Assembly (NCBI GenBank): GCA_964387175.1
Contig: CAYLVJ010000003.1
Span: 1-40,744 of the forward strand
Direction of reading: 5' to 3'
Length of the DNA stretch: 40,744 nucleotides
From: an uncultured Candidatus Saccharibacteria bacterium
GTDB lineage: Bacteria > Patescibacteriota > Minisyncoccia > Minisyncoccales > CAYTKG01
The number at the start of each line of letters is the position of its first letter. Position 1 is the stretch's first letter. The notes beneath the pieces are model-generated. The model had not been told where the DNA came from and did not search any database. It worked only from the letters and a program-made list of their open reading frames with translations. Positions 7,830 to 26,119 of this stretch are shown one piece after another. A program made the position numbers and the translations under genes.

Positions 7830-8423
7830 ATGAAATACGATTTAAACAAGGAAAGAGTCGAAGAAATAATGAAAATTGAAGGTGAAGCCCGGGGAGCAGC
7901 CATTAAAACTGATTGGTCTTTCGTAAAGGATAAGTTTGGAGAAGAAGGAATTAAAAAAATAGAAAAAAGAATGGCTGAGTTGGGGCATCCTTTAAAATAC
8001 GAAGAGATTAAAACTATGAGTTTTTATCCCTTGGGAATAGATCTTCTTTCTATATTGGTAATAGGAAAAGCCTTTAGTTTCGAAGAAAAAGATTTTGTTG
8101 ATATGGGACGAAAAGCTTTTAGATTTTCAATCTTTCTAAAGCTATTTTTGCGCTACTTTACTTCTCTTGAAAAAATGGCTGAACAAGCCCCCAAAATGTT
8201 TAAAAAACATTATAGTATTGGGAGTCTTAGGATGAAAGAGATTGAAGAAAAAAAAGCAGTAGTAACATTAAAAAACTTTGATGTTCACAAAGTTTACTGT
8301 TTAACCCTACAGGGTTATCTTCCTGAAGTAACAAGCATGGTTCTTAATAAAGAAATAAAGTGCGAAGAGGTAGCATGCACTCATGAAGGAGACTCCTATC
8401 ATGAATTTGTTCTCACTTGGTAG
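7830..8423 (+). CDS. V4R/DUF2378-like small Cys/His-motif protein, paralogue 1 of 4
   Basis: Aligns along its full length with 21305-21904, 24006-24602 and 25517-26119. The C-terminal GY...CEEVAC-x7-HEF signature resembles V4R domains. Confidence 0.6.
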   Translation: MKYDLNKERVEEIMKIEGEARGAAIKTDWSFVKDKFGEEGIKKIEKRMAELGHPLKYEEIKTMSFYPLGIDLLSILVIGKAFSFEEKDFVDMGRKAFRFSIFLKLFLRYFTSLEKMAEQAPKMFKKHYSIGSLRMKEIEEKKAVVTLKNFDVHKVYCLTLQGYLPEVTSMVLNKEIKCEEVACTHEGDSYHEFVLTW

Positions 8424-10393: not shown

Positions 10394-12631
10394 ATGGACA
10401 AACAATACGATCCAAAAAAATATGAAGAGGGGGTTTACAAGAAATGGGAGAAAGAAAACTGTTTCAAGGCAGAAATAGATCCCGACAAAAAACCTTTTAC
10501 CATTCTTCTTCCACCCCCCAACGCTAATGATTCCTTGCACGTGGGACACGCCCTTTTTACCGTGGAAGATATTCTCTGCCGGTGGCACAGGATGAAGGGA
10601 GATCCCACCCTTTTTCTTCCGGGTACAGATCACGCTGGGATAGAAACTCAATACGTGTTTGAAAAGAAACTTCAAGAGAAAGGGAAAAGCCGGTTTGATT
10701 TTGATCGAGACACTCTTTACGAGAAAATAAAAGAGTACGTGGAAAAAAACAGAGGGATCGCTAAAAAACAAATGAAAAGCCTCGGCTTTAGTTTGGACTG
10801 GTCAAGAGAGAGGTATACGCTGGAGCCTGAAATTTTGGAAACGGTTTTTGACACCTTCGAGAAACTCCATGAAGACGGGTTAGTTTACAGAGGAGAAAGA
10901 ATTGTTAATTACTGTCCTCACTGCGGAACCGCTTTTTCCAACCTTGAGGTAGAACACGAAGAAAGAAAAGACTATCTTTATCACTTGGACTACGGATCAG
11001 TTAACGTGGCAACCACCCGCCCGGAAACAATCTTTGCCGACTCCGCCGTCGCCGTAAACCCCGAAGATCCTCGTTTTAAGAACCTAGAAGGAGGCGAGGC
11101 GGTAATCCCTCTCACGGAGAAAAAGATACCTGTTGTAAAAGACGAGTTGGTGGACCAGGAGTTTGGAACCGGGGCTTTGAAGGTCACTCCTGCTCACGAT
11201 GAAACTGATTTTGAGATCGGACAAAAACATGACCTTTCATTTTCAAAGGTGGTCAGCTTAGAAGGAAAGATGATAAACGTTCCGAAAAAGTATGAAGGAA
11301 TGAGAGTCCTTGAGGCCAGAAAAGCAGTTGTTAGCGATCTTGAAAAAGAAAAGAAATTGATAAAAAAAGAACCCATAAAACACACCGTTAAAGTTTGTTA
11401 CCGTTGTAAAAACCTGATCGAACCTCTTACCATGCCCCAGTGGTTTGTGAAGATAAAACCCTTGGCGGAGCCGGCTATTGAAGTGGTTAAAAGTAAAGAC
11501 TTGGAGATTTTCCCTGAAAGGTTTAAAAAAATATATCTTCAATGGATGGAAGACATTCATGATTGGAATATAAGCAGGCAGATTGTTTGGGGGCCGAGAA
11601 TACCGGCTTGGTATTGTGTAAAGTGCAACCCTGAAATTTTAATAACCTTTATCGATAAAGAAGGAAAAAACCACACCGATCGTTTGGGATCTCTCTTGGA
11701 AAAATACAAATTGGAAGAAATTAAAAATGGGCTTCAAAGTTTGGTAGCTCCTAAAAATTCTTCTTATTCCCTTGAAAAAGGAAAGTGTCCTCAATGCGGG
11801 TCGGAAAAAACACTGCAGGAAACAGACACTTTTGACACTTGGTTCTCTTCGGGACAGTGGCCCCTGACCTCTTTGGGTTTCCCCGACAGTGAAGATTTTA
11901 AATACTTCTACCCAACGGATGTTTTAGACACGATGTGGGATATTTTGTTCTTTTGGGTGGCAAGGATGGTCATGCTCAGTCTTTATCGAACAGGAGAGAT
12001 TCCTTTTAAGGTTGCCCATATGCACTGTAGAATTGTTGACGAGAAGGGTCAAAAAATGAGTAAAAGCAGGGGAAATGTTGTTAACCCCTTGGAAATTGCG
12101 GAAGAATACGGCACCGACGCTTTGCGGATGTCGCTGGTTTTTGGAACTTCTCCCGGAGGAGATATTTCCCTAGGGAAAGACAAGTTCAAAGCTATGCGTA
12201 ATTTTGCCAACAAGATTTGGAATGCGTCTCGGTTCGTAAGCATTATGCTTGAAAGAAACGAAGGAGAAGTAAACTGGGAGCAGCCGGTAGGCGAAGAAGA
12301 CAAAGAGATTTTAAAAAAGCTGGATGAATTGATAAAAGAAGTGGACCATCAACTTGAAAACTTCAGGTTCGGATTGGCCCTGGAAGAAATCTACGAGTTC
12401 TTTTGGCATGATTTCTGCGATGAATACCTGGAAAGTTCAAAAGAAAGAGTAGAGGAAGCGCTTCCTATATTAATCGAAGTTCTAGTTGAAACCTTGAAAC
12501 TTCTTCATCCTTTTGCTCCTTTCATAACCGAGGTCATTTACGACGTCTTTAAAGAAAAACTTGAAAATGAAAAATTATTTGACCGGGAATTTATCACCGT
12601 GGCCAAGTGGCCGCAACCAAAGTCGAATTAA
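10394..12631 (+). CDS. valS: Valine--tRNA ligase, short form without the C-terminal coiled-coil
   Basis: PPPNANDSLHVGHA (HIGH), KMSKS, ValRS-type editing-domain blocks TTRPETIFADSAVAVNPEDPRF and GTGALKVTPAHD. 745 aa. Confidence 0.85.
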   Translation: MDKQYDPKKYEEGVYKKWEKENCFKAEIDPDKKPFTILLPPPNANDSLHVGHALFTVEDILCRWHRMKGDPTLFLPGTDHAGIETQYVFEKKLQEKGKSRFDFDRDTLYEKIKEYVEKNRGIAKKQMKSLGFSLDWSRERYTLEPEILETVFDTFEKLHEDGLVYRGERIVNYCPHCGTAFSNLEVEHEERKDYLYHLDYGSVNVATTRPETIFADSAVAVNPEDPRFKNLEGGEAVIPLTEKKIPVVKDELVDQEFGTGALKVTPAHDETDFEIGQKHDLSFSKVVSLEGKMINVPKKYEGMRVLEARKAVVSDLEKEKKLIKKEPIKHTVKVCYRCKNLIEPLTMPQWFVKIKPLAEPAIEVVKSKDLEIFPERFKKIYLQWMEDIHDWNISRQIVWGPRIPAWYCVKCNPEILITFIDKEGKNHTDRLGSLLEKYKLEEIKNGLQSLVAPKNSSYSLEKGKCPQCGSEKTLQETDTFDTWFSSGQWPLTSLGFPDSEDFKYFYPTDVLDTMWDILFFWVARMVMLSLYRTGEIPFKVAHMHCRIVDEKGQKMSKSRGNVVNPLEIAEEYGTDALRMSLVFGTSPGGDISLGKDKFKAMRNFANKIWNASRFVSIMLERNEGEVNWEQPVGEEDKEILKKLDELIKEVDHQLENFRFGLALEEIYEFFWHDFCDEYLESSKERVEEALPILIEVLVETLKLLHPFAPFITEVIYDVFKEKLENEKLFDREFITVAKWPQPKSN

Positions 12632-15007: not shown

Positions 15008-15012
15008 ATAAT
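14983..15012 (+). promoter_or_regulatory. Candidate promoter of the uvrBAC block (TTGAAG-N18-TATAAT)
   Basis: TTGAAG at 14983-14988 and TATAAT at 15007-15012. The second in-frame ATG of uvrB (15020) lies 7 nt after the -10. Confidence 0.4.
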
Positions 15013-17092
15013 GAAAAGCATGGAAAAATTTCATTTAAAATCAAACTTCAACCCAAAAGGAGATCAGCCCCAGGCAATTAAAAAGCTAACGCGGGGGGTA
15101 AAAAGAAGTCAAGACCACCAAGTTCTTTTGGGAGTAACTGGATCGGGAAAAACTTTCGTCGCCTCCAAGGTGATAGAAAACCTTCAGATGCCGACGCTTG
15201 TCATTTCGCACAATAAAACTTTGGCCGGACAGCTCTTTCAGGAATTTAGAGAGTTTTTCCCTGAAAATGCGGTTCATTACTTTGTTTCCTACTACGACTA
15301 TTACCAGCCGGAAGCTTACGTACCTCAAAGAGACCTTTACATTGAAAAAGAATCGAGTATTAATGAAAAGATAGAAATCCTGCGACACTCCGCCACCCAG
15401 GCCCTTATGAGCAGAAAAGACGTATTGGTGGTTGCTTCCGTTTCCTGCATATATGGACTAGGACAACCCAAAGACTATGCTTCTTTAAGTGAAACGTTTA
15501 AAAAGGGAGGGGGGGTTAAAAGAAGCGAGGTTTTACGCTCTCTTGTTAATCTTTTGTATGAAAGAAACGACTGGGATTTAAAAAGAGGTGGTTTTCGGGT
15601 GAGGGGCAACACTGTCGATATTTTCCCTCCCTATGGAGAAAGAGCTCTCAGGATAGAAATTTTAGGAGAAAAGATAAGACGCCTGAGATGGATCGAGCCG
15701 GAAAGTGCAGCTCTTTTTAAGGAAGTAGAAAAAGAAACTCTTTTTCCAGCTGAACATTTTATCACCCCTGAAAAACGTTTGAAAAAAGCAACTAGGTTGA
15801 TTGAGATGGAGCTTGAAGAGAGAGTTAAAGAGTTGGAGAAAAAGGGTAAGAAAATAGAGGCGTATCGGTTGGAGCAAAGAACAAAACATGATCTTGAGCT
15901 GATGCGGGAACTTGGTTTTTGCCCCGGCATAGAAAATTACTCGCGTTATCTTTCGGGAAGAAAAAAAGGAGAACCACCTTACACCCTCCTTGATTATTTC
16001 AAGCGGGGTTTGGAGGGAAAAGAAAGAGACTTTTTGTGCATCATCGACGAGTCCCACATGACCATCCCCCAGATCAGAGGAATGTATGCTGGAGATAGAG
16101 CGCGTAAAAAAACGCTTGTGGAGCACGGTTTTCGTCTTCCTTCAGCGCTTGACAACAGACCGCTTCGTTTTCAAGAATTTCAAAAAAGGGTTCCTCTTTC
16201 TATTTATACTTCCGCTACTCCGGGCAACTGGGAAATCAAAAAAGCAGAAGAAGAGGCCGAAAAACATGACTTAGGGTCTGAAAAAGGGGTTATAGAGCAG
16301 ATCGTAAGGCCAACCGGGCTTCTTGACCCGGAGGTTGAGATTCGTCCTCTCAAAAACCAAATTGAAGACCTTATCCGAGAAATTGCAAAAAGAAAAAAAA
16401 GAGGAGAAAGGGTTTTAGTGACAACCCTTACCAAGAGAATGGCGGAGCAGTTGGCGGATTATCTTTCTAACAACGTGAAGGTTAAAAAACTCCTGGGAAA
16501 AAAGGTTCCCGAGATAAAAACAAGTTATCTTCACAGTGAGATAAAAACGTTGGAAAGAAGTGAAATTCTTCTCAAGCTTAGAAAAGGAGAAATAGACGTT
16601 GTGGTGGGTATAAATCTTCTTCGGGAAGGGTTGGACCTGCCCGAAGTTTCATTGGTTGCTGTTTTAGACGCCGATAAGGAAGGCTTCTTGAGATCGGAAA
16701 CCGCTTTGGTTCAAACAATGGGAAGAGCGGCTCGCAACAAAGCTGGTAAAGCCATTCTTTACGCGGACAAAAAAACAGGTTCCATTAAAAAAGCTGTGGA
16801 GGAAGTTGAAAGAAGAAGAAAAAAACAAAAAGAGTTCAACCGAAAACACGGCATTACCCCTGAAACAATTAAAAAATCCTTCCGGAGAGGTATTTTAAGC
16901 GGAAGGCCCGGCTTGAAAAAAGAGGGAGACGCAGAAGAAGACAGGTGGTCTAAACTTCCTCCCCGGGAACTTCGGAAAAAAATAATCGGGTGGGAAAAGG
17001 AAATGAAAAAAGCCGCCAATGACTTGGATTTTGAAAAAGCGGCTGATCTAAGAGACAAGATAAGAAAATATAAAAAAGAAATAAGTTCTTGA
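15011..17092 (+). CDS. uvrB: Excinuclease ABC subunit B
   Basis: [33 protein letters not shown] and a C-terminal UVR motif ([12 protein letters not shown]). The start may be the ATG at 15020 (MEKFHL...). Confidence 0.95.
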
Positions 17093-17093
17093 A

Positions 17094-20018
17094 ATGAAAA
17101 AAGAAATAAGAATAAGAGGAGCCAAAGAGCACAATTTAAAAAATATCAGCTTGTCGATACCAAAGGAAAAACTGGTAGTTTTTACCGGTGTTTCTGGTTC
17201 GGGAAAGTCAAGTCTTGCGCTTGACACTATTTATGCGGAGGGGCAAAGAAGATACGTGGAGTCCCTTTCTTCTTACGCCCGTCAATTTCTCGGAGTCCAA
17301 TCCAAACCGGATGTAGAAGAAATACATGGGCTGTCTCCGTCTATTGCCATCAACCAAAAAAAGCCCTTTCACAACCCCCGTTCAACCGTAGGGACGATTA
17401 CCGAAATATATGATTATCTCCGCCTTTTGTTTGCCCGTATCGGGACTCCTCACTGCCCTCAGTGCGGAAGGGAAGTTAAAAAAGAAAGCTTGGACGGCAT
17501 TGTAAGTCAAACGGAAAGAATAATTAAAAAATCAAAAAGAAAAAAAGCCAGTATTTTGATTCTTTCTCCCTTACGCAGGGGAAAAAAAGGAACCCACAAA
17601 GAACTTTTAAAAAACCTCCGAGGGCAAGGGTTTTCTTTTGCTCGGATTGATGAAAAAATTTTCGACTTGACAGAAGTTGACGAACTTGAAAAGAATAAAG
17701 TCCATGACATTGAAGCAGTAGTTGATCGGTTGGAGGTTGAAAAATTTTCTTCAAAAACGAGATCCCGACTTTCAGACAGCATCAGTCAAGCGCTGGAGCT
17801 TTCGGATGGAGAAGTGATAGTAGCTGAAAAAAGAGCAAAAAAAAGAACAGGGAAGGTGAAAACCAACGACCATCTTTTTTCAAAAAACTTCGCTTGTCCT
17901 TACTGCGGTATTGGTTTAGCTGAACTGGAGCCCCGTGATTTTTCCTTCAACTCTCCTTATGGAGCTTGCCCGGAATGTGAGGGACTGGGAACAAAGTTAA
18001 CGGTTAAAGAGAAAAAGATATATAATCCCCGTTTGAGCATAAAAGAAGGTGGTATTTTGCCCTTAAGCTGGCTCACGACAAAAGACAACTGGTTTACCCG
18101 TCTTTTGGAGGCGGTTGGAAAGAAAAAAGGCTTTGATCTTTACACGCCTTTAGGAGAATTTTCTTCCGAAAAATTAGAGATTTTGACACGAGGAACAGGA
18201 AAAGAAGAGTTTTTAGTAAAGGGGAGAAACAGGCGGGGAGAAAAGACCTCTTTTTGGGAAACCTTTCCGGGTATAGCTCACGAAATAGAAAAAAGGCATG
18301 AAGAGACAAGCTCACGGAGAACAAGAAAAAGGTTGGAAAAATACATGCACAAAGGAGAGTGTCCTTCGTGCAGCGGATCACGCCTTAAAGAAGAAGCTCT
18401 TAGTGTAACAATCAAGGAAAAAAACATATCGGATATTACGGGAATGAACATTAAAACTTCACTAGACTGGTCGGAGAAAACCTTTAAATCACTGGATAGA
18501 AAAAGGGGAGAAATAGCAAAGCCTGTTATAAGAGAAGTCAAAAACAGACTTTCCTTTTTGGACAAGGTTGGACTTTCTTATCTTACTTTAAATAGAAAGG
18601 CGTCCACGCTTTCGGGGGGAGAGGCGCAAAGAATACGACTTGCTTCCCAAATCGGATCAGGTCTTTCCGGGGTTCTTTACGTTTTGGATGAGCCTTCGGT
18701 TGGGCTTCACTCAAGAGATATTAAAAAACTCACTCATACCTTAAAAGAGTTGAGAGATTTGGGCAACACCGTTGTCGTGGTAGAGCATGATCGAGAAATG
18801 ATCGAAGAAGGGGACTGGTTGGTAGATTTTGGACCAAAAGGAGGTAAAAAGGGTGGAAAAATAGTAGTTGAAGGATCGCCTGAAAAGATTAAAAAAAGTA
18901 AAAAATCATTAACCGGGGATTATCTATCCGGCAGAAAAGAGGTGGCGGTGAATAAAACAAAGTTAAGAAAAAAAGAGGCCGAAAAAGAAAAAGACGACAA
19001 CCCGGGAAAACTCAGGCTGAAAGAAGCTTCTCAATTTAACCTTAAAAAAATTAACGTTGAGTTCCCTCTAGGCAAATTCATCACCGTCACCGGAGTTTCC
19101 GGCTCGGGAAAATCGACACTTGTTTTTGAAACCCTCTTGCCGGGTCTTAAAGAAGAATTGGGCATGAAAGTGGAAAAGCCGACAGACAACTACAAAAGCC
19201 TAAAAGGAGCGGTCAAAGTTGACCGGGTTTACGAAGTGGATCAAAGTCCAATAGGAAGAACACCCCGTTCCAATCCTGCAACTTACATCAAAGCTTTTTC
19301 TTACATTAGAAAAGCTTTTGCCCAAACAAAAGAATCACGCCTTAAAGGATTCAATAAAACTCACTTTTCCTTCAACACCGAGCCCGGAAGGTGTTCTGCT
19401 TGCAGGGGCCAAGGCCAAGAAAAAATTGAAATGCAGTTTCTTTCCGATATTTACGTAACTTGTGACGTATGTGGAGGAGCCCGGTTCAGTAAAGAAGTTT
19501 TAGGTGTAAAATACAAGGGAAAAACAATCAAAGAAGTTTTGGAAATGAACGCTGAAGAGGCGCTTCCCTTCTTTTCCAATATTTCACCCCTAAGAAGAAG
19601 GTTAAAAACATTGAATGAAACAGGGTTGGGTTATCTACAGCTGGGTCAACCGGCCCCGACCCTTTCAGGAGGAGAAGCTCAAAGAGTTAGATTGGCCAAA
19701 GAACTTTCTAAAATGAGTCGTGGGCATACCTTTTACGTCCTCGATGAACCAACCATAGGGCTGCATCCACATGATTTGAAAAAACTTTTAAACATTCTTC
19801 GTCGTTTGGTGGCCCGCGGGAACACGGTTCTTCTTATTGAACATAACTTGGACGTTGTAAGAAACTCCGACTGGTTAATAGATTTAGGGCCGGAAGGGGG
19901 TGAAAAAGGAGGAGAGGTTGTTTTCACCGGAACTCCTCAAAGTATTAAAAATTGTAAAAAGTCATATACGGGTCAAGCTCTCACGGAATATGAAAAAAAA
20001 CTTAAAAAAACAAATTAA
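17094..20018 (+). CDS. uvrA: Excinuclease ABC subunit A
   Basis: Two ABC modules ([10 protein letters not shown] and [10 protein letters not shown], each with LSGGEAQR) and zinc-finger CxxC pairs. The start is 1 nt after the uvrB stop. Confidence 0.95.
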
Positions 20019-21291
20019 AGACCTGCCTAAAAAACCAGGTGTTTATCTTTTTAGATCTGAAAAAGAAAGGGTTTTATACGTGGGAAAAGCTTCCTCGCTT
20101 AAAAACAGAGTTTCTTCATATTTTCAAAAAAGCGCAGATTTGGGCCCCAAAACAACCTTGATGGTTTCCAAGATTGAAAAGATAAAAACTTTTCAAACCC
20201 CCTCGGAGATAGAAGCTCTTCTTTTGGAAGCCGATCTTATCAAAAGATTAAAGCCCAAGTACAATCAAAGAATGAAAGATGATAAAAGCTATCCTTTGAT
20301 AGAAATAACTACGGAAAAATTTCCTCGGGTAAAAATCACACGGCAAATGAAGAAAGGGGACTATTTCGGCCCCTTTCCCAAAGGAGACTTAAGAAAAATT
20401 TTAAAAACTATAAGAAAAGTTTTTCCTTTTAGAAGCTGCTCGGATGTTAAATTTAAAAAGCATGAAAAATTAAAAAGAGGATGTCTTTTTTATGATCTTG
20501 ATCTTTGCCCCGCGCCTTGTGCAAAGAAAATATCCAAAAAAGAATATCAAAAACAGATTAAGTCCTTAAAAAGATTTCTAAGTGGAAAAGGAAAGAAAGT
20601 TTTAAAAAATTTAGAGAAAAGAATGAGACAAGCTTCGAAAGAGAAAAAGTATGAATTGGCTGCTAAATTACGAGACAGGCTTGAAAGTTTGAGATACGTA
20701 AGACATCGGTTTCAAATCAAAAACACCAAGGATTTGAATCTCAATCTTCCAGAAGATCGTCGGAGAGAAAAAATGATTGAGTTAAAAAAGTGTTTGAGCT
20801 TGAAAAATCTTCCCCGCCGTATTGAAGCCTACGACGTCTCCAACATTCAAGGCAAAAAGGCAGTTGGATCCATGGTGGTTTTTATAGATGCCGAACCGAA
20901 GAAAAAACACTACCGCCGGTTTAGAATAAAAGGGGGGGGTAAGCCGAACGATACAAAAATGATAAAAGAAATACTTTCTCGACGTTTCCTTCGTTTTAAA
21001 GAAAATGGGGAAGACGAGTCTTTTAGCAGCGAACCCGACCTTGTTTTAATCGACGGAGGAAAGGGTCAGCTTTCCGCCGCCTTTGAAGTCATCCGTGACA
21101 AAAATATTGAAACGGAAGTTTTTTCCATAGCAAAAAGAAAGGAACAAATATTTTTTATCCAAAACGAAAAAGTTGAGGGTCCTTTAGATCTTAAATCCTC
21201 CTCACCAGCTTTACTTCTTTTAAGACATATAAGAGATGAGTCTCACCGGTTTGCAATTAATTACCACCGCAAACTTAGACAAAAAATTTGA
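19990..21291 (+). CDS. uvrC: Excinuclease ABC subunit C, lacking the C-terminal (HhH)2 domain
   Basis: GIY-YIG N-terminus (PGVYLF...YVGKA), Cys cluster, UVR domain (YELAAKLRDRLESL), and an endonuclease domain ending at DESHRFAINYHRKLR. The start is taken at MKKNLKKQI (19990), overlapping uvrA by 29 nt. Confidence 0.85.
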   Translation: MKKNLKKQIKDLPKKPGVYLFRSEKERVLYVGKASSLKNRVSSYFQKSADLGPKTTLMVSKIEKIKTFQTPSEIEALLLEADLIKRLKPKYNQRMKDDKSYPLIEITTEKFPRVKITRQMKKGDYFGPFPKGDLRKILKTIRKVFPFRSCSDVKFKKHEKLKRGCLFYDLDLCPAPCAKKISKKEYQKQIKSLKRFLSGKGKKVLKNLEKRMRQASKEKKYELAAKLRDRLESLRYVRHRFQIKNTKDLNLNLPEDRRREKMIELKKCLSLKNLPRRIEAYDVSNIQGKKAVGSMVVFIDAEPKKKHYRRFRIKGGGKPNDTKMIKEILSRRFLRFKENGEDESFSSEPDLVLIDGGKGQLSAAFEVIRDKNIETEVFSIAKRKEQIFFIQNEKVEGPLDLKSSSPALLLLRHIRDESHRFAINYHRKLRQKI

Positions 21292-21297
21292 TATAAT
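21289..21297 (+). promoter_or_regulatory. Extended -10 promoter (TGaTATAAT) positioned for a leaderless transcript of paralogue 2
   Basis: TGATATAAT at 21289-21297, then 7 nt, then ATG at 21305. The 20-mer matches 38492-38511 at 19/20 positions. Confidence 0.5.
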
Positions 21298-21304
21298 AAA
21301 AAAG

Positions 21305-21904
21305 ATGAACAAACTTACTCAAAAAAAAGTTCGGGAAATAATGAAAATCGAGGGAGAAGCAAGGGGAGTCACCCTTAAAAGTGATTGGTCTTATATAAAA
21401 AATAAGTTCGGAGATGAGGGTGTGGAAAAATTAGAAAAACGAATGAAGGGCTTGGGGCGTCCCTTGAAATTTGAAGAAATTAAGGACACAAAGTTTTACC
21501 CCTTAGGCCTGGATCTTATTTCTATTTTGGTAATCAAAGAAATCTTCGATTTTAACGACAAAGACTTAGAAAAAATGGGAGAAGGTGAAGTAAAGTTTTC
21601 AATCTTCGCCAAACTTTTTTTCAAACACCTTGTTTCTTTAAAAAAGATAGCGGAAGAATGTTCTAAAATGTTTTCAAAACACTACACCCGAGGTGAAATT
21701 AAAGTAAAAGAATTGAGCAAAGAAGAATGTTACGCGAAGATAAGGCTCGTTGATTTTAATGTTCATCCCGTCTATTGTTCTGCCCTCAAGGGTTATTTCA
21801 AGGGAATGCTCAATCTTGCTTTGGGCAAAGACGTCACCGTCAAAGAGACGAAATGTTCCCACAAAGGTGACCCGTTTCACGAATTTGTAATCAACTGGGA
21901 ATAA
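21305..21904 (+). CDS. V4R/DUF2378-like small Cys/His-motif protein, paralogue 2 of 4
   Basis: About half identical by eye to 7830-8423 (IMKIEGEARG, FYPLG, VHPVYC, KETKCSHKGDPFHEF). The start is taken at MNKLTQ (21305), not the track start 21236 inside uvrC. Confidence 0.6.
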   Translation: MNKLTQKKVREIMKIEGEARGVTLKSDWSYIKNKFGDEGVEKLEKRMKGLGRPLKFEEIKDTKFYPLGLDLISILVIKEIFDFNDKDLEKMGEGEVKFSIFAKLFFKHLVSLKKIAEECSKMFSKHYTRGEIKVKELSKEECYAKIRLVDFNVHPVYCSALKGYFKGMLNLALGKDVTVKETKCSHKGDPFHEFVINWE

Positions 21905-21908
21905 ACAC

Positions 21909-21936
21909 TTGACTATTCAACCAACTTCCCTATAAT
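21909..21936 (+). promoter_or_regulatory. Near-consensus sigma70 promoter (TTGACT-N16-TATAAT) driving the thrS leader
   Basis: TTGACT at 21909-21914 and TATAAT at 21931-21936. Confidence 0.55.
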
Positions 21937-21943
21937 TTAATAA

Positions 21944-22009
21944 ATGGATAAAAAGTTTCAAAAAAGTGTCGAAAGCACAACAACAACCTCTTAGAAGAGG
22001 CTCAAATTA
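21944..22009 (+). CDS. Candidate 21-codon leader ORF (MDKKFQKVSKAQQQPLRRGSN) in the thrS leader
   Basis: The ATG is 7 nt after the TATAAT, so it would be leaderless. The ORF runs through the first hairpin and stops 8 nt before the terminator stem. Too short to assess statistically. Confidence 0.3.
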
Positions 22010-22016
22010 AAAGTTT

Positions 22017-22047
22017 GAAGCCTCTTTACCGAAGAGGCTTTTTTATT
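22017..22047 (+). terminator. Intrinsic terminator 15 nt upstream of the thrS start codon (attenuator candidate)
   Basis: AAG-C-CCTCTT (22017-22026), loop TACCG, AAGAGG-CTT (22032-22040) with one bulged C, then TTTT-A-TT. There is no room for a promoter between it and the ATG at 22062. Confidence 0.6.
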
Positions 22048-22061
22048 AACACACAAAAAAT

Positions 22062-23792
22062 ATGAAAATTAAAAAGATAAGACATTCTCTCGCTCACATA
22101 TTAGCTTTGGCGGTTAAAAAACTTTATCCCGAGGTTAAGTTCGGGATGGGTCCCGATACTGAAAACGGCTTCTATTACGACTTTGAATTTAAGGAGCCCA
22201 TTTCTTCAAGCGACCTTTCAAAAATAGAGGAGAAGATGAGGGAGCTTCTTCAAAAAGAAATAAAGTTTGAGAAAAAAGTAGTTTCGAAAGAAAAAGCTGG
22301 GAAAATATTTAAAGATCAATCTTACAAGTTAGATCTCTTAAAAGACCTGGAAGAGGAGGTAAGTCTTTACTCTTCTAATGGATTCACGGATCTTTGCAGA
22401 GGTCCTCACGTAAAATCCACTTCTGACATCCCGCTTGAGGGATTCACGCTTGACAGGGTAGCCGGAGCTTATTGGAAAGGAGACGAGAAAAACTCGATGT
22501 TGACCAGGATATATGGTCTTGCCTTCGGAAAGAAAAAAGAGCTTCAAGATTTTCTTGAAAAAAGAGAGGAGGCAAAAAAGCGCGACCACCGGCACTTAGG
22601 CAAAAGACTTGATCTTTTCATTTTTGATGAAGAAGTGGGGCAAGGCCTTCCTCTTTATCTCCCCAAAGGAGCAATGGTAAGACATCTTCTTATGGATTTT
22701 GCTCTAAACACCTACTTGAAAGAAGGTTACGAACTTGTCTCTACTCCTCATATTGGCAAAGAAGATCTTTGGGAGCATTCCGGCCATCTCAAGTTCTACA
22801 AAGAAGACATGTATGGGCCTCTAACAGTCGATGAAGAAAAATACCGCCTTAAGCCTATGAACTGCCCCTTTCACGTTAAAATGTACAAGAATGAAGTGAG
22901 AAGTTACAGGGATCTGCCAATAAGGTGGTCAGAGATGGGAACGGTCTACCGTTATGAAAAGTCCGGAGAGCTTCACGGCCTTACCCGTCCCCGCGCATTT
23001 ACCCAAGACGATGCTCATATAATCTGCACTCCGGAACAACTAGAAGAAGAAGTGGTTTCCGCTTTAAAGCTCACCCGCTACATATATCAAACCTTGGGGC
23101 TTGAAGACCTAAAGTTCAAGCTTTCTATCAGGCAGCCGGGCAAGGAAGATGAATATTTCGGATCGGAGGACGAGTGGAAAAAAGGAGAAATGGCGCTTAA
23201 GAAAGCCTTAGAAAGATTCGGACAGGAAAATTATGAGCTGGATAAAGGAGGAGCTGCTTTTTACGCGCCCAAGATAGATGTTGACGCGGTGGATGCGGTA
23301 GGAAGACGTTGGCAGCTTTCAACTATTCAAATTGATTTTAATCTTCCGAAGAAGTTCGATATGAAATATGTTGATGAAAACGGCGAAGAAAAAACACCCT
23401 TCATGATCCACCGGGCTTTACTGGGATCTTTGGAAAGATTTCTCGGAGTTTATATCGAACACACCGCAGGTGAATTTCCTCTTTGGCTCGCCCCGGAACA
23501 AATATGGATCATCCCGGTAGCAGACAGAAACAAAAAATACGCCGAAAAAGTAGCTGAAGCACTTTCTGATTTACGGATTAAGATAAAAGGAAGGGGAGAA
23601 ACGGTTTCTAAGAAAATAAGGGAGGGAGAGCTCCAAAAGATACCGTATCTTCTTGTGGTGGGAGACAGAGAAGAAGAAAAACAAGAAGTCAGCGTTAGAA
23701 AAAGAAACAAGGGGGATCTCGGAGCTAAAAAGTTGAGTGATTTTGCAAGGCAAGTGAAAAAAGAGGAGAGGGAGAAAACGTTTGATTTTTAA
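22062..23792 (+). CDS. thrS: Threonine--tRNA ligase, without the N-terminal TGS domain
   Basis: Starts at the editing/SAD region (IRHSLAHILALAVKKLYPEVKFGMGPDTENGFYYDF). It has class II catalytic blocks and a C-terminal anticodon-binding domain. 576 aa. Confidence 0.9.
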   Translation: MKIKKIRHSLAHILALAVKKLYPEVKFGMGPDTENGFYYDFEFKEPISSSDLSKIEEKMRELLQKEIKFEKKVVSKEKAGKIFKDQSYKLDLLKDLEEEVSLYSSNGFTDLCRGPHVKSTSDIPLEGFTLDRVAGAYWKGDEKNSMLTRIYGLAFGKKKELQDFLEKREEAKKRDHRHLGKRLDLFIFDEEVGQGLPLYLPKGAMVRHLLMDFALNTYLKEGYELVSTPHIGKEDLWEHSGHLKFYKEDMYGPLTVDEEKYRLKPMNCPFHVKMYKNEVRSYRDLPIRWSEMGTVYRYEKSGELHGLTRPRAFTQDDAHIICTPEQLEEEVVSALKLTRYIYQTLGLEDLKFKLSIRQPGKEDEYFGSEDEWKKGEMALKKALERFGQENYELDKGGAAFYAPKIDVDAVDAVGRRWQLSTIQIDFNLPKKFDMKYVDENGEEKTPFMIHRALLGSLERFLGVYIEHTAGEFPLWLAPEQIWIIPVADRNKKYAEKVAEALSDLRIKIKGRGETVSKKIREGELQKIPYLLVVGDREEEKQEVSVRKRNKGDLGAKKLSDFARQVKKEEREKTFDF

Positions 23793-23805
23793 ACCTCTCA
23801 TCTTT

Positions 23806-23836
23806 AAAAAGCGGCCTAACGGCCGCTTTTTTTGTT
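23806..23836 (+). terminator. Rho-independent terminator after thrS
   Basis: AAAAA GCGGCC (23811-23816), TAAC loop, GGCCGC (23821-23826), then TTTTTTT. Confidence 0.8.
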
Positions 23837-23879
23837 TTTGATTTTTTGTTACAAGCCGGGAGGAGATATGATCTTTCAG

Positions 23880-23916
23880 AAGCCGGAGCAAGTTTGTTCC
23901 GGCTTTAACTTTTTTC
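23880..23916 (+). terminator. Second hairpin plus T-run downstream of thrS (tandem terminator or regulatory element)
   Basis: AAGCCGG (23880-23886) pairs with CCGGCTT (23899-23905), followed by TAACTTTTTT. A third copy of AAGCCGG lies at 23853-23859. Confidence 0.4.
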
Positions 23917-24005
23917 ACAAAAACACAACACGTTTTACTTGTCAAATAAAGCTGTAGGAAGAGAAAAAAATAGTATATAATGAAAAAAGTAAAGTATTTA
24001 AATAA

Positions 24006-24602
24006 ATGGCTTTTGTTTCTCAAAAGGAAGTGGAAAGATTAATGGGGATAGATACCGAAGTGAAGGGGATAGGTATTGCCGATGATTTTTTTTATGTAAA
24101 AAGAGTCAAGGGAAAAAAGTTCTCTCAAAAAATGGAGGGGGCGATTCAAGAATTGGGAGTTGACTTTAACCTTAAAAAGATAAAGCCGATGGAGTTTTAT
24201 CCAGTGGGGTTGGAGGGATTGGGACTTTTAGCAGCTCATAAAGTAGCAGGACTTTCTGAAGACGAAATTAGAGAAATGGGAACTCACGAGCCAAAAGAGT
24301 CTTTGATTATAAGATTGTTTTTAAAATATTTCGTTTCTTTGGATTCCTTAAGCAAAAACGGGAATAAAATGTGGAGTGGTTATTACACCAAGGGAAAATT
24401 AAGTGTTCCCGAAGCAGACGAGGCGAAAGGCAGAGCTACTATCCTGCTGGAGGACTTTAAACTTCACCCCCTTCACTGCCGCATGCTGGAAGGATATCTT
24501 GCTACCTTAGCTGGGATGGTTGTTTCTTCAAAGGTAAAATGCAGAGAAACAAAATGTCCCTTTAATGGGGATGAGTTTCATAAGTTTAAATTGGAATTTT
24601 AA
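24006..24602 (+). CDS. V4R/DUF2378-like small Cys/His-motif protein, paralogue 3 of 4
   Basis: Collinear with the other three copies (FYPVG, LFLKYFVSL, LHPLHC, EGYL, RETKCPFNGDEFHKF). Confidence 0.55.
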   Translation: MAFVSQKEVERLMGIDTEVKGIGIADDFFYVKRVKGKKFSQKMEGAIQELGVDFNLKKIKPMEFYPVGLEGLGLLAAHKVAGLSEDEIREMGTHEPKESLIIRLFLKYFVSLDSLSKNGNKMWSGYYTKGKLSVPEADEAKGRATILLEDFKLHPLHCRMLEGYLATLAGMVVSSKVKCRETKCPFNGDEFHKFKLEF

Positions 24603-25516: not shown

Positions 25517-26119
25517 ATGTCTATTTTAGAAAAAAAAGAAATTGAAAAGTTGAAAGGGATAAAAGGAGAAGTAAGAGGAATGGCCCTTAAGGGCGACGGG
25601 GAATACATTTTAAAAGAAAAAGACAAAGTTGCGGTTGAGAAAATAGAGCAGGAGTTAAAAAAGGCGGGTTTTCCTCTTGAATTTGAAAAGATGAAAGCAA
25701 TGCATTTTTATCCCTTAAGCACCGATGCTGCAACATTAACCTTAATGAATAAAATCTTCGGGTGGGAAAGAGAAGAAATGATTAAGTTAGGCACTTTTCT
25801 TTCCAAATCCTCTCTTGTTCTCAGGGTTTTTATGAAACATTTCACCTCTATCGAAAAGGTGGTGGAAAAAGCCTCTGAAATGTGGCGCAAGAATTATACC
25901 GTTGGAAACTTAGAAGTAACAGAGTTCAATAAAGAAGGCGGTAAACTCATTATCAGGCTTAAAAATTTCAAGGCTACGCCTTTTTACTGCCCAATTTTTC
26001 AAGGATACCTTGAAAGCGTTGCGCAAATGGTTTTAAACAAAGAAGCAAGCTGTAAAGAAACAAAATGCACTTTCAAAAAAGACCCTTACTGTGAATTCAG
26101 AGTAAAGTGGACTCCTTAA
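25517..26119 (+). CDS. V4R/DUF2378-like small Cys/His-motif protein, paralogue 4 of 4
   Basis: Collinear with the other copies (GIKGEVRG, FYPLS, VFMKHFTSI, TPFYC, QGYL, KETKCTFKKDPYCEF). The last ligand position is Cys instead of His. Confidence 0.55.
   Translation: MSILEKKEIEKLKGIKGEVRGMALKGDGEYILKEKDKVAVEKIEQELKKAGFPLEFEKMKAMHFYPLSTDAATLTLMNKIFGWEREEMIKLGTFLSKSSLVLRVFMKHFTSIEKVVEKASEMWRKNYTVGNLEVTEFNKEGGKLIIRLKNFKATPFYCPIFQGYLESVAQMVLNKEASCKETKCTFKKDPYCEFRVKWTP

Follow-up and report, generated by a model that had tools for sequence, protein, structure and literature searches.

Leader-peptide attenuators, such as Escherichia coli thrL (Rfam family RF00506) and the trp, his, leu, and phe attenuators, carry tandem codons of the amino acid that they sense (threonine, Thr, in thrL), and the position of the ribosome selects one of two mutually exclusive folds, terminator or antiterminator. 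Leader-peptide control is likewise known for a synthetase, through pheM in front of E. coli pheST. Other controls are known for thrS, the gene of threonyl-tRNA synthetase (ThrRS), namely the T-box of Bacillus subtilis thrS and thrZ and the translational operator of E. coli thrS, which mimics the anticodon arm of tRNA-Thr. In mycobacteria, leaderless short open reading frames (ORFs) with poly-Cys runs reportedly act as amino-acid-responsive attenuators of downstream genes. The present study concerns an element immediately upstream of thrS in a 40.7-kb window (the whole stretch of DNA that was analysed, 40,744 nt of contig CAYLVJ010000003.1, ∼39% GC) from a member of the Patescibacteria, or Candidate Phyla Radiation (CPR). 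We put the probability at roughly 80% that this element is a ribosome-mediated leader-peptide transcription attenuator, raising thrS expression when charged tRNA-Thr is scarce. The composite layout recurs upstream of thrS at 9 loci (8 distinct sequences) in Patescibacteria.

Previously, His-codon leader control has been proposed for hisS paralogues in Bacillus (PMC2965389). From RNA-seq of Streptomyces lividans TK24, leaderless leader ORFs have been proposed for thrL-thrS, leuL2-leuS, trpL2-trpS, and alaL-alaS (PMC8079986). The S. lividans thrL peptide, MKRVRPFLETTPGFVPAR followed by a stop, contains two Thr codons; according to the authors, its single hairpin has no U-rich tail and its termination is unclear (PMC8079986). 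The Patescibacteria element shares with S. lividans thrL-thrS the target gene and a leader ORF transcribed from its promoter without a 5′ leader. Unlike S. lividans thrL, it combines 4 to 9 Thr codons with a canonical terminator and an antiterminator that covaries, and a sequence relationship between the two is not evident. An earlier note on this DNA had considered such control undescribed for thrS; given the Streptomyces proposal, this holds only in part, although the number of Thr codons in that leader is no more than two and a clear terminator is lacking there. Our literature searches (thrS with threonine codons; CPR/Patescibacteria with attenuation) found no published account of thrS linked to threonine-codon runs in a leader, nor of attenuation in CPR/Patescibacteria.

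Like E. coli thrL and the classical attenuators, the window leader combines tandem codons of the sensed amino acid with exclusive terminator and antiterminator helices, and a ribosome at its stop codon would mask arm 2. In contrast to those systems, its target is a synthetase and not a biosynthetic operon, its ORF is predicted to be leaderless and not Shine-Dalgarno-led, and neither sequence nor covariance models match it to them. It also departs from the trp paradigm, as its antiterminator is the stablest of the three helices; therefore, lack of translation would give read-through, not superattenuation. As a proposed attenuator of a synthetase gene through codons of its own amino acid, the element resembles pheM-pheST and the Bacillus hisS-paralogue leaders, whereas the amino acid, gene, and phylum differ. 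As with the T-box and the E. coli thrS operator, the ThrRS level would be matched to tRNA-Thr charging. In those two systems, RNA structure senses tRNA or ThrRS directly, whereas the proposed sensor here is the translating ribosome. The mycobacterial poly-Cys ORFs, likened here by description only, are likewise short, leaderless, and built around a run of a single codon class; the amino acid, phylum, and targets differ, and the thrS element has a canonical intrinsic terminator.

The features of the window on which the argument is built are as follows.

21909 to 21914, + strand: TTGACT, −35 hexamer of the leader promoter (P1), found by scan and invariant in 9/9 element loci.
21931 to 21936, + strand: TATAAT, −10 hexamer of P1 after a 16-nt spacer; the spacer and TA[TAG]AAT are kept in 9/9 loci.
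21943 to 21944, + strand: predicted transcription start of a leaderless or 1-nt-leader mRNA, judged from the 7 nt between −10 and ATG in 9/9 loci.
21944 to 21994, + strand: leader ORF of 16 codons plus TAG, MDKKFQKSVESTTTTS and stop, by direct translation.
21977 to 21988, + strand: putative regulatory codons ACA ACA ACA ACC (four Thr codons, codons 12 to 15), in frame with the ATG by direct translation.
21987 to 21992, + strand: arm 1, CCTCTT, reaching from within the last Thr codon through the Ser codon to the first base of the stop.
21994 to 22008, + strand: arm 2, GAAGAGGCTCAAATT, predicted by folding to pair weakly with arm 1 or strongly with arm 3.
22012 to 22027, + strand: arm 3, AGTTTGAAGCCTCTTT, which serves as 3′ strand in the antiterminator and as 5′ strand in the terminator, with A22018 bulged in 2:3.
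22031 to 22044, + strand: arm 4, GAAGAGGCTTT, with the T-run; together with 22017 to 22027 it forms the intrinsic terminator.
22062 to 23792, + strand: thrS, ThrRS of 576 amino acids, the putative regulated gene, from its ORF and domains.

With 11 of 12 positions matching the consensus, P1 ranks first among the promoter-like sites of 21200 to 24200. The leader ATG stands 7 nt after the −10 hexamer, as the earlier note had observed. An arrangement of the form TTGAY-N15-18-TAnnnT-N5-9-ATG/GTG occurs in the window only here. The invariance of the 7 nt across loci predicts a leaderless or 1-nt-leader mRNA. The ORF ends with TAG at 21992 to 21994, 67 nt upstream of the thrS ATG. Previously, the ORF had been described as 21 codons long, stopping at 22007 to 22009, with the Thr codons at 21976 to 21987 in the −1 frame, reachable by a slip of tRNA-Lys or explained by a homopolymer error. 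All of this goes back to an off-by-one count; the run is in frame, and neither a slip nor an error is needed. Four consecutive ACN codons occur twice on both strands of the 40.7 kb, one occurrence being the leader site.

Between the terminator and thrS, neither a promoter scan nor inspection by eye finds a promoter-like site in the window, in agreement with the earlier note, and the terminator scan finds no terminator between the stop of the upstream V4R-domain gene (21904) and the leader. Judged from these scans, the only evident way for transcription to reach thrS in the window would be to read through from P1 or the upstream operon. The thrS ATG is at 22062, and the product has the domains tRNA_SAD, tRNA-synt_2b (class II core), and HGTP_anticodon (anticodon binding).

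The predicted folds compete with each other, as the earlier note had anticipated. The 1:2 hairpin pairs 21987-21991 (CCUCU) with 21996-22000 around a UAGA loop that holds the stop codon (−5.6 kcal/mol). The 2:3 antiterminator is a 15-bp helix with one bulge (−16.7 kcal/mol). The 3:4 terminator, which the earlier note had put at 22017 to 22047, has a stem of 11 pairs (22017-22027 with 22031-22041), a loop of 3, and a T-run at 22039 to 22044 (−13.9 kcal/mol); including the T-run, it ends 17 nt before the thrS ATG. The duplicated arms are real. The terminator copies lie where they had been reported (CCTCTT 22021-22026, AAGAGGC 22032-22038), and the upstream copies had to be shifted by one (21987-21992 and 21995-22001, not 21986-21991 and 21994-22000). 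The leader folds with z = −4.2 relative to dinucleotide shuffles. In the folding predictions, masking the RNA up to 22008 (ribosome at the stop) leaves the terminator alone, while exposure from 21992 or 21995 (stall at the first or second Thr codon) yields the antiterminator.

These features are those expected of a leader-peptide attenuator: a short ORF with a usable start, in-frame cognate tandem codons, an intrinsic terminator, a conserved exclusive antiterminator sharing a strand with that terminator, and a geometry that lets the ribosome position choose the fold. In the proposed mechanism, P1 would start the RNA at the AUG of 21944 or one base before it, and the ORF would be translated as a leaderless mRNA close behind the polymerase. 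With ample Thr-tRNA(Thr), the ribosome would reach the UAG at 21992-21994, and its footprint, ∼12 to 15 nt past the A site, would cover arm 2. The footprint sizes used here are established toeprint knowledge. Arm 3 would then pair with arm 4, and transcription would stop at the terminator (22017-22041 plus the U-run), 17 nt short of thrS. If Thr-tRNA(Thr) runs short, the ribosome would stall at the first Thr codons (21977, 21980), covering arm 1 and leaving arm 2 free. The 2:3 helix, stabler than the terminator and transcribed earlier, would sequester the 5′ strand of the terminator, and the polymerase would read into thrS. The weak 1:2 hairpin and the U/A-rich stretch after it may make the polymerase pause and so bring it into step with the ribosome. 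The scan flagged this hairpin with its U-rich 3′ side as terminator-like in L172 and L176, which would be compatible with a role as a pause site.

The comparison covered at least 177 loci, obtained from exact-protein look-ups and from scans of genome and metagenome contigs. Among the matches listed, the contig scans gave ThrRS genes of many phyla and few close relatives; most of the element-bearing loci came from the exact-protein look-ups. Among the loci listed, those with the element are the window, L001 (with L002 and L003), L004 (a Nealsonbacteria metagenome-assembled genome, MAG), L169 (with L170), L171, L172, L173, L174, and L176. Among the 5.8 billion proteins searched, a single public MAG protein reaches 91% identity to the window ThrRS and nothing else exceeds 69%, the best matches being labelled Minisyncoccales, Pacebacteria, Nealsonbacteria, or Patescibacteria. 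Apart from the 91% relative, the ThrRS proteins of element-bearing relatives are 61 to 69% identical to that of the window.

Promoter geometry is the same at 9/9 loci (TTGACT, a 16-nt spacer, TA[TAG]AAT, exactly 7 nt, ATG), with a purine as the seventh base of the 7 nt in all of them. The promoter was also called independently in relatives, as was the terminator in L169, L172, and L176. The leader ORFs have 15 to 17 codons, and the relatives' peptides are MDKKFRKSVENTTTTS, MKNAITTTTTKATTSL, MKSLITTTTTTTTTSL, MNFSIQQTTTTTTTSL, MKIFESKAKKTTTTSSL, MKNLVLQTTTTTTTSL, and MYIAFQINVTTTTSL. Their N-terminal halves are unrelated, and the tail, Ser(-Leu)-stop, is encoded by arm 1. The Thr codons are consecutive except in L004, which has a run of five and a pair with two codons between them; over the family, ACA is used 19 times, ACC 15, ACG 10, and ACT 6. 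The stop codon varies (TAG, TGA, TAA) and yet keeps its position at nt 46 to 52, with the end of the arm-2 core at nt 56 to 58. These fixed positions place arm 2 within the footprint of a terminating ribosome.

The order of predicted energies is likewise kept at 9/9 loci, from 2:3 (−15.6 to −18.9 kcal/mol) through 3:4 (−8.5 to −13.9) to 1:2 (−5.6 to −10.4), the last being equal to or weaker than 3:4. Since every member has a 2:3 helix stronger than its 3:4 helix, read-through would be the default, and termination would need a ribosome at the leader stop. The element always lies immediately 5′ of thrS on the same strand. Its upstream neighbour varies: the window has a V4R-domain gene there, most relatives have dnaE, and L176 has a divergent gene; the element thus travels with thrS. 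Of the distinct thrS upstream regions listed, 9/158 carry in the sense direction a short ORF that begins with ATG and has at least four Thr codons in a row; in antisense, 0/158 do. Leu was the only other amino acid with a comparable run, in 2/158 of these regions.

Covariation was assessed on an alignment of the 8 sequences, built by hand because a plain MAFFT alignment of the leaders misplaced arm 3 between the two clades; it was N-padded, follows the predicted pairs, and leaves out two bulged bases. In the antiterminator, 88% of the cells are paired (38 to 59% with the partner slid), and 9/15 pairs have changed on both sides, a number reached by 2/500 shuffles. For the 1:2 hairpin, 96% of the cells are paired and 0/7 pairs changed on both sides; for the terminator, 89% and 1/8. 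The poor covariation of these two helices is due to the core arms (CCUCU/AGAGG), which barely vary. The one covarying terminator pair involves the arm-3 base beside the core, and this base covaries with both its arm-2 and its arm-4 partners (C-G/G-C versus U-A/A-U), as mutual exclusivity predicts. The in-frame Thr run and the covariation of the arms, for which the earlier note had looked to relatives, are thus found, the latter for the antiterminator, while some close relatives lack the element. Its central proposal, a leader-peptide attenuator working by terminator/antiterminator choice before thrS, stands with the Thr codons in frame and the layout conserved.

Several observations weigh against this reading. 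A stall at the third or fourth Thr codon would leave arm 2 partly under the ribosome, where terminator formation could still occur; with RNA exposed only from 22001 (stall at the fourth codon), the terminator is again predicted. The 1:2 and 3:4 helices receive almost no support from covariation, and the hand-built alignment, with 8 sequences in two clades, leans towards the predicted structure. The element is absent from the equally close relatives L085-L088, L175, and L177, and L083 has only a trace of it, a degenerate Thr-containing ORF. Among the relatives listed, the closest at 68 to 69% ThrRS identity do not have it; in L085-L088, dnaE and thrS are 48 nt apart. Since several equally close relatives do without it, the element is dispensable. 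The transcription start and the translation of the leader ORF are predictions from sequence, and transcripts reading in from the V4R side would hold the leader ORF internally and not at their 5′ end.

Furthermore, in six relatives, thrS would not depend on read-through alone. An invariant TGATAAAAT (an extended −10, TGnTAnAAT) lies between their terminator and thrS, 6 to 11 nt before the ATG, and is probably a second, basal, near-leaderless thrS promoter. It is absent from the window and from L001. The regions concerned are as follows.

L004, 1452 to 1488: TGATAAAAT region.
L169, 664 to 700: TGATAAAAT region.
L171, 671 to 700: TGATAAAAT region.
L172, 664 to 700: TGATAAAAT region.
L174, 667 to 700: TGATAAAAT region.
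L176, 736 to 764: TGATAAAAT region.

The alternative that fares best would have the short ORF influence translation or the stability of the mRNA, for instance by re-initiation or hand-over to the thrS start, and not termination; we consider this very unlikely. Ribosome re-initiation or hand-over has been suggested for many leader genes (PMC4833913). The thrS gene has no Shine-Dalgarno sequence and starts 17 nt past the terminator, which would suit such a scheme, and in the relatives with the second promoter-like element termination control cannot be the whole story. However, the leader stop is 67 nt away from the thrS ATG with a strong hairpin between them, and the thrS start region is unsequestered in every predicted fold. 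Two hallmarks of termination control are present: a conserved U-run following arm 4, and 2:3 and 3:4 helices that exclude each other.

Slightly less credible is an independent gene between P1 and the terminator, encoding a ∼100-nt trans-acting small RNA or a functional 16-amino acid micropeptide and only incidentally adjacent to thrS. The unit does have its own promoter and terminator, and in Sinorhizobium an attenuator RNA, rnTrpL, and a leader peptide, peTrpL, are reported to have functions in trans (PMC6614838, PMC7298713). But the element never leaves its place directly 5′ of thrS, whatever the upstream neighbour, all that the peptides have in common is the Thr run and the tail encoded by arm 1, and the covarying antiterminator would be purposeless in a stand-alone small RNA. 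A trans role may exist besides the cis control of thrS.

Direct sensing by the RNA without translation, either of uncharged tRNA-Thr in the manner of a T-box or of ThrRS on an anticodon-arm mimic, is very unlikely, although both mechanisms are established for thrS in other bacteria and the terminator loop of the window contains ACC. At gathering score, no Rfam family, including T-box and Thr_leader, matches anywhere in the window, and within 21800 to 22150, Thr_leader (RF00506) and T-box (RF00230) give no match even at E ≤ 10. The loops (UAGA, AAA, UACCG) are not conserved and show no conserved anticodon-like NGU triplet of the E. coli thrS operator type; the leader hairpins are at least 20 nt from the thrS ATG. 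The use of 4 to 9 Thr codons, with all four codons employed, fits ribosome decoding and not one RNA or protein partner. The ACC of the terminator loop was considered as a T-box-like specifier and rejected, since the 91% relative has GCC at this place and others have CAAA. Permissive Rfam matches in 21800 to 22150 and at the loci of 11 relatives (Ysr49, Phe_leader, L20_leader) were rejected as sub-threshold and at chance level. Phe_leader (RF01859) reached 23.6 bits (E = 0.084) against a gathering score of 55 in 21800 to 22150, a generic resemblance of ORF plus terminator only.

It is highly improbable that the hairpin at 22017 to 22047 merely terminates the upstream uvr/V4R unit and that the ORF with its Thr run is a chance product of an AT-rich spacer. 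Short ORFs are common (380 ATG-started ones of 6 to 40 codons in the window), and the uvr/V4R unit has no other terminator between the V4R stop and the hairpin. Chance does not account for the near-consensus promoter lying between that stop and the hairpin, for the recurrence of ORF, Thr run, four arms, and promoter spacing behind differing upstream genes, or for the sense-strand enrichment of Thr runs, with (ACN)4 nearly absent elsewhere in the window. An out-of-frame Thr run reached by a −1 slip on the A-runs, or created by a homopolymer assembly error, can practically be dismissed, as direct translation puts the run in frame, the 91% relative has altered A-runs (AAAAAG to AAAAAA, CAAAAAAG to CGAAAAAG) in the same frame, and two independent assemblies of that relative, GCA_964615425.1 and a Logan contig, agree on this frame despite differences in both A-runs.

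We consider it rather probable, short of confident, that the nine loci represent a conserved family, new to the literature, in which Patescibacteria (Parcubacteria/Nealsonbacteria-type lineages) control thrS by leaderless Thr-codon attenuators. The family appears undescribed, and it matches no Rfam family. The mechanism itself is textbook; the lineage and the family are where it is new, and a specialist would find it neat rather than surprising. CPR bacteria generally lack amino-acid biosynthesis, and their regulation has been little described because the organisms are uncultivated. A conserved attenuator therefore gives a concrete sequence-level regulatory element for annotating CPR genomes, and would be indirect evidence for leaderless translation and for transcription-translation coupling in CPR cells. 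It would also exemplify amino-acid sensing aimed at a synthetase where the organism cannot make the amino acid. If such a family exists, no class of cis-regulatory attenuator would have been reported from CPR bacteria before it, and minimal, biosynthesis-poor cells would tune a tRNA synthetase to tRNA charging by 70S leaderless initiation and tight coupling. The logic would be unusual, being on by default and requiring a ribosome at the leader stop for termination.

Thr-rich leaders were also seen before thrS outside this family. A second, unrelated family stands ∼85 to 150 nt upstream of thrS on the metagenome contigs L102, L116, L117, L104, L110, and L130, with leader peptides such as MFKNLFIFTTTTTTPAGV and MKQFVFILTATTTTTPFGVR, each followed by a stop; the best-matching ThrRS proteins are labelled 'Alphaproteobacteria bacterium' by NCBI. 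There, the Thr run is followed by a CCCC-N4-GGGG hairpin over the last ORF codons and then by a GCGC-rich hairpin and a conserved TATAAT, and an obvious U-tract terminator was not seen on these contigs. In L142 (∼−189 to −40 from thrS), a Thr-rich leader ORF, MKFINLTTTTTQITSFQEGAVEFCK and stop, precedes a canonical terminator. The same arrangement is found in L163 and L165, which are GC-rich and proteobacteria-like (∼−137 to −20 from thrS), with MLVVTPRTTTFTTRV and MTPRTSTPICFPIR, each with a stop, before canonical terminators. Since Thr-rich leaders precede thrS in unrelated lineages (Alphaproteobacteria-labelled and proteobacteria-like contigs, Streptomyces), the sequences point to a repeated, convergent invention of leader-peptide control of thrS.

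Among the relatives, L083/L084 (68% ThrRS identity) carry at 1390 to 1440 a 16-codon ORF, MKYLITTTLGFNTNPL and stop, which starts inside the dnaE stop codon (GCATGA) and is followed by a CCCCUUUAGGGG hairpin with neither a U-tract nor a promoter. This ORF with its hairpin may be the remnant of a decayed attenuator. In L176, the public thrS call (591 amino acids, GTG at 701; region 701 to 764) starts within the attenuator and crosses the terminator. Homology and the TGATAAAAT element place the real start at ATG 765 (MSKEIEKQKHS...), so that the public call would be an annotation error stemming from an unrecognised leader.

In the window, the spacer between the V4R-domain gene and thrS is 157 nt. 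Downstream of thrS, the terminator scan finds two strong features, both within 115 nt of the thrS stop.

23806 to 23831, + strand: first of two tandem terminator-like hairpins after thrS.
23879 to 23906, + strand: second of the two.

These tandem hairpins suggest that the thrS unit is monocistronic. A second synthetase gene (10394 to 12631; class I, Leu/Val/Ile type, 745 amino acids) follows a bacA-like gene after a gap of 20 nt. Such a gap leaves no room for a leader, and attenuation is therefore not general to the synthetase genes of this genome. A Shine-Dalgarno-like motif with the usual spacing precedes only about 1 of 34 genes in the window (AAGGAG before 4114), and the start regions are A/T-rich (e.g., 485, 5661, 10394, and 22062). 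Translation initiation thus appears to proceed largely without Shine-Dalgarno pairing in this genome, and a leader ORF without such a motif is normal here.

Four paralogous proteins of ∼200 amino acids with a C-terminal V4R domain, mostly slightly under the Pfam cut-off, are encoded at 7830-8423, 21236-21904, 24006-24602, and 25517-26119, and two of them flank thrS. The region 15011 to 21291 is a uvrB-uvrA-uvrC cluster, in which the longest uvrC ORF (GTG 19900) overlaps uvrA by ∼119 nt. Given this overlap and the gene call in a relative, which is 30 amino acids shorter (433 versus 463), the true uvrC start in the window probably lies further downstream than GTG 19900.

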